Part shown: piece by piece, positions 13,891 to 14,170 of the stretch | Layout of the letters: each line of letters starts with the position of its first letter | How positions within the stretch are numbered: position 1 is the stretch's first letter | Assembly (NCBI GenBank): GCA_001820305.1 | Contig: MHPC01000002.1 | Coordinates: forward strand, 1-40,969 | DNA: 40,969 bases | Reading direction: 5' to 3' | From: Candidatus Staskawiczbacteria bacterium RIFCSPLOWO2_01_FULL_43_17b | Lineage (GTDB): Bacteria; Patescibacteriota; Minisyncoccia; Minisyncoccales; Staskawiczbacteraceae | Translations under genes and position numbers: made by a program | Notes under the pieces: generated by a model | What the model was told of the DNA's origin: nothing | Seen by the model: only the letters and a program-made list of their open reading frames with translations | Databases searched by the model: none

Positions 13891-14170
13891 GGAGGTAAGG
13901 AGTGTAAGAAAGAATTAAAAACATTTTAGCGGTAGCGGATTCAGGCAAGATTCAAGGCGCGAGGAACAAATTGAATGCCGGAGGTATTGTTTGTTCCGAA
14001 GCAACGATGAAGCTTGCCTGAATCCGCCCGCCCGGAGGGAAGCCAAAAAATAAATAATTTCTGCGTTATCCCTCCTCGGCGTAGCGCATGGGCTATGCCT
14101 CGTCGGCAAGCCTTGAAATTATTTCATTTTTTGAGCTTCTAAAAGTGCTTTTAATTCTTTCTTACACTCC
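13891..14170 (+). ncRNA. about 280-nt structured element A (family of two): 22-bp closing helix GGAGTGTAAGAAAGAATTAAAA/TTTTAATTCTTTCTTACACTCC, inner helix GGATTCAGGCAAG/CTTGCCTGAATCC, conserved single-stranded ATTCAAGGCGC and GCAACGATGAAG, 3' hairpin + U-tract
   Basis: copy B at 14604-14881 keeps the same core and architecture with different (compensatory) helix sequences; sits between tRNA-Ile and a direct repeat of its 3' 26 nt. Confidence 0.55.

Follow-up and report, generated by a model that had tools for sequence, protein, structure and literature searches.

Structured repeats of a Staskawiczbacteria genome are probably copies of a palindromic, non-autonomous DNA transposon

In this work we analysed a stretch of 40,969 nt (hereafter the window) from Candidatus Staskawiczbacteria bacterium RIFCSPLOWO2_01_FULL_43_17b (Patescibacteriota; contig MHPC01000002.1 of assembly GCA_001820305.1), in which inspection of the sequence alone had pointed to two related structured repeats, called A and B here. 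Together with a third copy, C, which lies in the 16S rRNA gene, they are probably copies of a non-autonomous palindromic DNA transposon of the 'foldback' kind, resembling a miniature inverted-repeat transposable element (MITE), with a fold that can be tolerated in structured RNA genes and leaders. The three copies belong to a large family, no prior description of which was found in literature searches.

Results

Copies A and B fold into a Y

Copies A (13899–14170) and B (14607–14877) are complete two-arm elements on the + strand, B being flanked by CTAG...CTAG. In A, an outer stem (13899–13928 paired with 14141–14170) encloses a left arm (13929–14031), a junction (14032–14037) and a right arm (14038–14140); the corresponding parts of B are the outer stem 14607–14636/14848–14877, the left arm 14637–14737 and the right arm 14744–14847. 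The original prediction of a family of about 280-nt repeats was correct, but it had A begin at 13891, and positions 13891–13898 are tRNA-derived flank. Every conserved stretch that it quoted is present at the position given, and window matches to the 17-mer GGCAAGATTCAAGGCGC and the 18-mer GCAACGATGAAGCTTGCC are confined to A and B even when up to three mismatches are allowed (0.08 and 0.03 matches, respectively, expected by chance). A and B are identical in 79% of aligned columns, and their inner helices, read directly in the sequence, differ yet remain complementary as described (GGATTCAGGCAAG/CTTGCCTGAATCC in A, GAATTCGGGCAAG/CTTGCCCGAATTC in B). The outer helices, said to be entirely different, do differ between the two copies but are not unrelated, being homologous across the family (consensus GGRGYGCGGGATTCGAACAGAATCA...; the family outer-stem consensus continues into the junction as GGRGYGCGGGATTCGAAC AGAATCA AUUUAG|...). 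A and B are members of different subfamilies, and the outer stem of A is resembled by those of L086, L093 and L107 (L-numbers are labels of the metagenome loci compared here).

The predicted fold of both copies is a Y formed by the outer stem and two long arms, with energies of −136.6 kcal/mol for A (z = −12.6) and −141.7 kcal/mol for B (z = −13.8) that were equalled by none of 200 shuffles; the complementary strands fold roughly equally well. The small hairpin plus U-tract in which each copy was thought to end finds no support: the T-run pairs with an A-run inside the right arm, of which it forms the 3′ strand, and a terminator scan called no terminator-like site inside A or B.

The Rfam covariance-model scan of A and B was empty even at E ≤ 10, in line with the earlier failure to match them to a known RNA class. 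At the gathering threshold, Rfam 15 matched only tRNAs and the small-subunit (SSU) rRNA in the window, and nothing in the proteobacterial, zetaproteobacterial, clostridial and Parcubacteria copies described below or in 20 loci from the candidate phyla radiation (CPR); none of its ribozymes, riboswitches, group I and II introns, transfer-messenger RNA (tmRNA), RNase P, signal recognition particle, 6S or HEARO models fits the family. A tmRNA or tRNA-like gene was rejected, ARAGORN reporting ordinary tRNAs only, and a tag-like frame in the left arm (GCA ACG AUG AAG CUU GCC UGA) is not conserved and lies within a helix. The elements contain no conserved open reading frame (ORF). A small protein in the right arm (AUGGCUGAUUUC...) was considered and rejected: its AUG occurs in some copies but not in A or several others, the reading frame is not maintained, and this stretch is base-paired with the 3′ strand and covaries with it. 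Readings of the arm core as a kink-turn, loop E, 11-nt receptor or T-loop, made by eye, were not convincing.

A dispersed family

A covariance-model search, as proposed in the original prediction, recovered a third copy in the window, C (39277–39543, minus strand), where only two had been counted. The arm model used (R1), which was built from an alignment (A4) of CPR left arms only, scores 84.7 bits in A and 76.4 bits in B, and its match in C (39424–39506, minus strand) scores 64.4 bits (E = 2e-15). A search of species-representative genomes for the left-arm core (AGATTCAAGGC, 25–55 nt of any sequence, ACGATGAAGCT) found 61 real sites. In two Competibacteraceae genomes the repeat takes the form of a one-arm hairpin of about 170 nt, with 25 or more copies in each; other Gammaproteobacteria, two Zetaproteobacteria and one Clostridia genome contain additional copies, and one Parcubacteria genome has a two-arm form like that of the window. 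A right-arm pattern matched at least 118 metagenome loci, and among the matches listed about 90 are full two-arm elements on CPR-type contigs from groundwater or sediment. CPR elements are 266–281 nt long and can be dense, with two or three copies within single loci of 4–13 kb and three in the 41-kb window. At 99.9% identity, the sequence of the window is also present in GCA_035291005.1 and in Joint Genome Institute (JGI) samples (including JGI 3300002502), and the metallo-β-lactamase (MBL)-fold protein encoded beside B has named homologues in Parcubacteria and Patescibacteria. A phage or plasmid origin was rejected, as phage and plasmid collections gave no BLAST match and pattern scans of IMG/VR were empty or returned chance matches in coding regions.

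Internally deleted 'solo' hairpins, clear at L089 (upstream of its element), L047 (position 3060), L070 and L135, are decay products of the element, and one-arm forms are found in the proteobacterial family and at L088 and L186. At L114, L180/L124, L070 and L096, other small palindromes are nested in an arm or truncate the element, which suggests that several hairpin-element families insert into one another in CPR genomes.

The elements are insertions with TA/YTAR flanks

Two relatives, L189 and L188, encode MBL proteins 85% and 76% identical to that of the window. Both retain the ancestral gene order: the 3′ end of tRNA-Ile lies directly before the ATG of a small cysteine-rich protein gene, with no A between them, and a terminator and a TACAAT box are followed by the MBL start in an intergenic region of about 30–40 nt, compared with 382 nt, including B, in the window. 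Empty sites in relatives show that A and B are insertions. In a further relative (P0010), the MBL gene follows an S11 peptidase gene after 122 nt. Near-identical elements occur in different flanks (L076 and L080), and orientation to the upstream gene is random (same strand 20, opposite strand 19), as it is in the proteobacterial relatives.

In Competibacteraceae, conservation reaches YTA|RGGAGCC...GGCTCCY|TAR and then ends; the Y and R at the outer edges vary independently of each other, as would be expected of host bases. Identical 4-mers on both sides are found in 9 of 43 Competibacteraceae copies, against 3.8 expected (p = 0.004), and include the non-palindromic CTAA, CCAG, CTCA and CAAG. 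Ends of family elements read GGRGYG... or GGAGCCTCTGAT.... In the CPR family, TA is enriched on both sides, preceding about 24 and following about 18 of 47 elements, as counted by eye. Elements of the IS630/Tc1-mariner group duplicate TA, often within CTAG, and those of the IS5 group duplicate YTAR. As read from these sequences, YTAR or TA flanks with 2–4-bp duplications have the signature of a DDE transposase.

ORF clustering of 61 proteobacterial and 94 CPR loci revealed housekeeping families only and no recurrent transposase, reverse transcriptase or integrase. The three ORFs beside a truncated element end in L178 were rejected as candidates; they encode a DUF5680 protein, an EF-Tu-domain-2 protein and a protein with two transmembrane segments.

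The original prediction had held that A and B are not a simple MITE. The empty sites, many copies, unrelated flanks, random orientation, TA/YTAR flanks and lack of a recurrent partner gene do not support this, and the elements have the usual MITE attributes: they are under about 500 bp, have terminal inverted repeats and no coding capacity, occur in many contexts and are present or absent between relatives. Neisseria Correia elements, the pneumococcal RUP and ERIC are small, ORF-less, multi-copy MITEs with terminal inverted repeats and a TA (YTAR) target that is duplicated over a few base pairs, and they lie between genes in either orientation; transcripts of TA-targeting MITEs form long hairpins, and RNase III cuts those of Correia elements. 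The present family resembles them in size class, lack of an ORF, copy number, inverted repeats, TA/YTAR flanks and insertion in either orientation. It differs from them in its length of about 270 nt, in its two inverted internal hairpin modules with stems that covary in each half, in a core conserved across phyla with variable termini, and in having copies in rRNA and tRNA genes.

A covarying nested palindrome

Covariation was measured on 46 CPR-type sequences (alignment A3). Standard pairs occupy 94.2% of cells, compared with 81.4% in shuffles; the changes are compensatory in 37 of 54 pairs, compared with 24 ± 1.9; and the covariation score is 0.378, compared with 0.136. None of 500 shuffles attains the observed values, and the score falls to 0.093 or less when partners are slid. 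The claim that structure rather than sequence is conserved in the stems is supported by these compensatory changes. The outer stem is a terminal inverted repeat, 22–35 bp long in A, B and C (5′ GGRG..., 3′ ...CYCC), and a need for one transposase to bind both ends would by itself be enough to make this stem covary.

The right arm repeats the left arm in reverse complement (mean z 4.2, compared with −0.9 in the forward orientation), and R1 matches right arms on the opposite strand with 38–47 bits. The unit is thus outer stem, arm, inverted arm, outer stem, in other words a nested palindrome. This inversion also explains why the purine-rich loops of the left arm are complementary to the pyrimidine-rich loops of the right arm. 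Functional arm–arm pairing of these loops (GAGGAG/GACGAG with CUCCUC/CUCGUC) was rejected, since their complementarity follows from the inversion; in addition, by inspection, the variant states of the two arms are uncorrelated while pairs within each arm covary.

The cross-phylum arm core surrounds a variable hairpin (AGAUUCAAGGCGC ... GCAACGAUGAAGCU in A, 13944–14018, + strand) and lies at 14651–14724 in B (+ strand). On proteobacterial, zetaproteobacterial and clostridial arms R1 scores 23–41 bits, at loci that were found by the core pattern and hence are not independent. From Patescibacteria through Proteobacteria to Clostridia, the unpaired internal-loop nucleotides of the arm are near-invariant.

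On one and the same strand, G-U pairs are commoner than A-C mismatches in the left arm (50 vs 23), the right arm (96 vs 12) and the outer stem (31 vs 19). The total, 177 vs 54, becomes 95 vs 54 without the pairs whose commonest state is G-U; the copies share ancestry and these events are not independent, but their direction is consistent, and the Competibacteraceae consensus has seven G-U and no A-C pairs. The compensatory changes within halves, the one-strand G-U excess and the conserved core together indicate that one strand is under some selection in single-stranded form, as RNA or as DNA.

The element could alternatively move by way of a folded single-DNA-strand intermediate, with the Y fold and the arm core as substrate of an enzyme that could be REPIN/RAYT-like (RAYTs being transposases of repetitive extragenic palindromes, REPs), IS200/IS605-like of the HUH type, or a recombinase as with integron attC or CTX phage attP. 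The G-U (G-T) excess in the outer stem and both arms, the compensatory changes within arms and an orientation independent of host transcription all favour such an intermediate, and a core that is kept across phyla while the termini are not would suit a structure- and core-specific enzyme. The two inverted modules recall REPINs, which are likewise paired, inverted, imperfect palindromes, non-autonomous and extragenic, with a hairpin kept by compensatory changes, and the one-module REPIN 'singlets' are paralleled by L088, L186 and the proteobacterial form. However, the modules are about 100 nt long here compared with about 25–40 nt in the far smaller REPs, and the family apparently has TA/YTAR duplications; the modules have no GTAG foot, which REPs carry, and no RAYT was found among the inspected neighbours. 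A REPIN-type use of opposite strands was rejected, both arms having their G-U pairs on the same strand. This last property is awkward for any structure-specific protein, to which the complementary right arm would offer other loop bases. Nor did the inspected flanks of any copy contain a Y1/HUH gene, an integron integrase or a cassette array, and short direct duplications at the target are, to our knowledge, a feature neither of HUH 'peel and paste' elements nor of attC recombination. We consider movement through a folded strand unlikely.

The attC site, which the original prediction had suggested, shares with the family an imperfect palindrome, a structure kept more than the sequence and an apparent reading on one strand. 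Sequence and context both contradict it: on direct reading, the R″/R′ boxes (RYYYAAC/GTTRRRY) are absent at the element ends, and attC sites are 57–141 bp long and lie in cassette arrays beside intI, whereas these elements are about 270 nt long and solitary, with no integrase among their neighbours. Moreover, conservation is found inside these elements and variation at their ends, the reverse of attC.

The selected strand could alternatively be an RNA, carried as cargo, that binds a host factor, processes itself or multimerises, the core being its active part and mobility being secondary. Strong covariation, the near-invariant unpaired nucleotides shared by Patescibacteria, Proteobacteria and Clostridia and the one-strand G-U bias are all properties of such RNAs, and promoter-like sites upstream of A (13664–13692, ahead of the tRNA cluster) and of B (14572–14600, ending 6 nt before it) imply that both copies would be transcribed in the sense direction. 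On the other hand, no promoter-like or terminator-like site was called within the element, about half of the copies are antisense to their surroundings (C and L177 even within rRNA genes), copies decay to internally deleted forms, and the family shows no gene association and no Rfam match. Moreover, the right arm preserves the complement of the core no less well than the core itself is preserved, which an RNA motif does not predict, although the right-arm search pattern partly imposes this conservation. In our opinion a functional RNA cargo is quite improbable.

Finally, a closing inverted repeat followed by two hairpin domains is also the layout of a retron-like or other reverse-transcriptase template, in which the outer stem would be a1/a2, the UUAG|C junction would provide the priming G, and the left and right arms would be msr and msd. 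The junction ...AUUUAG|CGGAG may resemble the ...CCUUAG|CGAGAGG of retron Ec86. This junction, however, belongs to a helix, since its UUUAG pairs with CUAAA and covaries with UUGAG/CUCAA; no reverse-transcriptase gene lies beside any of more than 90 loci or in the window; and tens of copies per genome and TA/YTAR flanks are not those of a retron. The retron and attC readings both fail their defining tests, and we regard a retron-like template as highly improbable.

Copy C lies in the 16S rRNA gene

Copy C (39277–39543, minus strand), recognized by its R1 match and by its alignment with A and B, is a complete two-arm element (left arm 39416–39514, right arm 39307–39409), antisense within the 16S rRNA gene, and either of its strands can fold into a Y (z = −13.8 and −14.2). 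It sits between ...CAAGGGGCCC and GGCACCGGCGAACGG... of the 16S gene (borders also given as ...GCAAGUCAAGGGGCCC and GGCACCGGCGAACGGCUUAGUAACACG...), a site that we take, by comparison with the E. coli 16S sequence and numbering, to be the tip of helix 6 (V1). When read in the direction of the rRNA, the ends of the element pair as a long stem and the Y fold lengthens the host helix. No group I or group II intron model of Rfam matches C. Another copy, L177, is also antisense inside an SSU rRNA gene, and its flanks place it, as we read them, in the V3/helix 17 region; copy L094 lies 12 nt upstream of a 23S start, and a tRNA gene is found within about 50 nt of the element at 5 of 60 scanned loci.

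The Rfam SSU match (39202–40969, 1768 nt) covers model positions 1–659 only. Within this gene, window positions 40212–40811 contain a 199-amino-acid ORF for a LAGLIDADG_2 homing endonuclease (E = 1e-32). The gene thus holds two or more insertions, and these differ in kind, one being copy C and another an intron of the CPR type that bears an endonuclease.

Intervening sequences that RNase III cuts out of rRNA are present in the 23S genes of Salmonella, Leptospira and Campylobacter and in V1 of the Clostridium paradoxum 16S gene. Copy C resembles them in its site at a helix tip, in paired ends that extend the host helix, in having no ORF and in not being a group I or II intron. In contrast with them, the family is also present between genes, within a tRNA cluster and in the leader of an mRNA, with transposon-like flanks, and we know of no classical rRNA intervening sequence that belongs to a dispersed repeat family. 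Rickettsia palindromic elements and the double-hairpin elements of Allomyces mitochondria are selfish palindromes tolerated inside genes, including rRNA variable regions. They are alike in folding out of the host structure; they have no sequence relation to the present family and other hosts, and the cross-phylum core and the apparent target-site duplications are properties of the family described here. The best-supported reading of C is an rRNA intervening sequence derived from the palindromic transposon family.

The tRNA-Ile and MBL loci

In the window, the genes next to the elements encode a small protein of the secreted type, a hydrolase with an MBL fold and a peptidase. Copy A interrupts an old tRNA-Ile gene. 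The disrupted gene (13704–13898, + strand) was delimited by eye against the intact tRNA as two fragments, F1 (13704–13737) and F2 (about 13870–13898), between which lies an intact tRNA-Ile (13786–13860, + strand); a third fragment, F3 (about 14171–14200, + strand), is the original 3′ end of tRNA-Ile and abuts the ATG of the small protein. F3 is a 29-nt direct repeat of 13835–13863 with 100% identity. The original prediction had described an att-like duplication here; the repeat exists, but an attR made by an integrase is not needed to explain it because relatives show F3 to be the original tRNA 3′ end next to the following gene. The locus (13704–14200) is a mosaic in which pieces of the old gene (positions 1–36, about 26–53 and 50–75) are interrupted by copy A and by the segment carrying the intact tRNA-Ile, the acceptor stem of which is lengthened by an 11-bp inverted repeat (AAAATTTTGGT/ACCAAAATTTT). 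Hairpin sequence at 13729–13785, inside the disrupted gene (UCCCGAUAAAUUUAGC-UUUU-GCUAAAUUGAUACGGGA), looks like the family's outer stem near the junction (GAAUCAAUUUAGC...CUAAAUUUGAUUC) without its arms, and may be a 'solo' remnant.

In L188 and L189, the MBL ATG follows the TACAAT box after 9 nt, a spacing which suggests that the MBL mRNA of these relatives is leaderless or has a very short leader. In the window, B lies just after the box, and B together with 43 extra nt separates the box from the MBL start. These 43 nt include a diverged second copy of the box region (TTATCCTAAT), and the insertion of B may have been accompanied by a longer duplication or by re-creation of the promoter.

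L186 (positions 1700–1900) belongs to the same species and comes from a different sample. It matches the window exactly as far as 14614, 8 nt into B, and continues with a different, one-arm, 125-nt family member (TA|GGGCGCC CAAAAAATGG...CGCCC|TA) and an RNase HII gene not present in the window; an element-copy rearrangement, a re-used target or an assembly artefact could account for the difference. L171 and L173 are 99% identical over the 5′ flank and most of the element and diverge within the 3′ outer stem, likely as a result of an assembly chimera or of recombination at the repeat. Further upstream in the window, a strong sigma-70-like promoter (13234–13262, TTGACA-17-TAGAAT with a TG extension) and an intrinsic-terminator-like hairpin (13602–13634) bracket about 370 non-coding nt. 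This region (13234–13640) has no Rfam match, contains GAUGAAAGUCCUGCGGGC, which is reminiscent of an RNase P P4 strand, and from its sequence may be a divergent or unknown non-coding RNA gene.

Discussion

The properties of A, B and C argue for a non-autonomous palindromic transposon as the probable origin of the three copies. In each unit, a terminal inverted repeat of 25–35 bp encloses two imperfect hairpin modules of about 100 nt, mutually reverse-complementary and sharing the cross-phylum core. In the scheme that we propose, an enzyme whose gene lies at another locus would mobilise the element in trans; the likeliest candidate is a DDE transposase, of the IS630/Tc1 or the IS5 type, that would insert it at TA or YTAR and duplicate 2–4 bp. 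As a closed palindrome, a single strand of the element read in either direction would fold into a self-contained Y that rejoins the flanks, which would account for its persistence at a 16S helix tip, in a tRNA cluster and in an mRNA leader. At such sites it would behave as classical rRNA intervening sequences do, and RNase III would presumably trim it. The fold itself may have been selected for tolerance or for a transposition intermediate.

Several observations fit this scheme poorly. B has CTAG on both sides, but A has TAA on its left and CA on its right, with no clean TA duplication, and only about half of the CPR copies have TA flanks. Neither the window nor about 1.2 Mb of flanks (2–15 kb per copy) yielded an autonomous partner or a transposase whose ends match. 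Double-strand DDE cut-and-paste predicts neither hairpins kept by compensatory changes within each half nor a one-strand G-U excess in all three regions, and tolerance in both orientations does not account for one favoured strand. The arm core, UUC.AGGCGCGAGGAG ... GACGAGCAACG..GAAG, is near-invariant across phyla, which a palindromic transposon leaves unaccounted for, while the termini vary from phylum to phylum; for a transposase-binding site, the reverse of variable termini and a conserved internal core is to be expected.

We tentatively keep as a minor possibility that the arm, a module of about 85 nt, is a functional nucleic acid, either an RNA that recruits or mimics a universal host factor or processes itself, or a folded single-stranded substrate for a new, structure-specific mobilisation enzyme. 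If so, the family would represent mobile structured elements of a new class and account for some of the ORF-less insertions in CPR rRNA genes, and an arm RNA that engages a host factor or processes itself would let its carrier sit harmlessly in rRNA, tRNA and mRNA.

A 2024 survey of rRNA insertions in CPR bacteria left the ORF-less, non-intron ones uncharacterised and considered that some might be RNase III-type intervening sequences (PMC11270868). The palindromic transposon gives some of these insertions an identity, as probable copies of a dispersed mobile element and not as rRNA-specific sequences. Its copies interrupt 16S genes and, in this genome, also a tRNA-Ile gene and the region between a promoter and a start codon, and they probably cause assembly breaks and chimeras in CPR metagenomes (as in L171 compared with L173, and in L186 compared with the window). 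A hairpin core shared across phyla between unconserved ends, in a fold kept by compensatory changes on one strand, is a pattern unexpected of an ordinary MITE, and the role of the folded strand is now directly testable.

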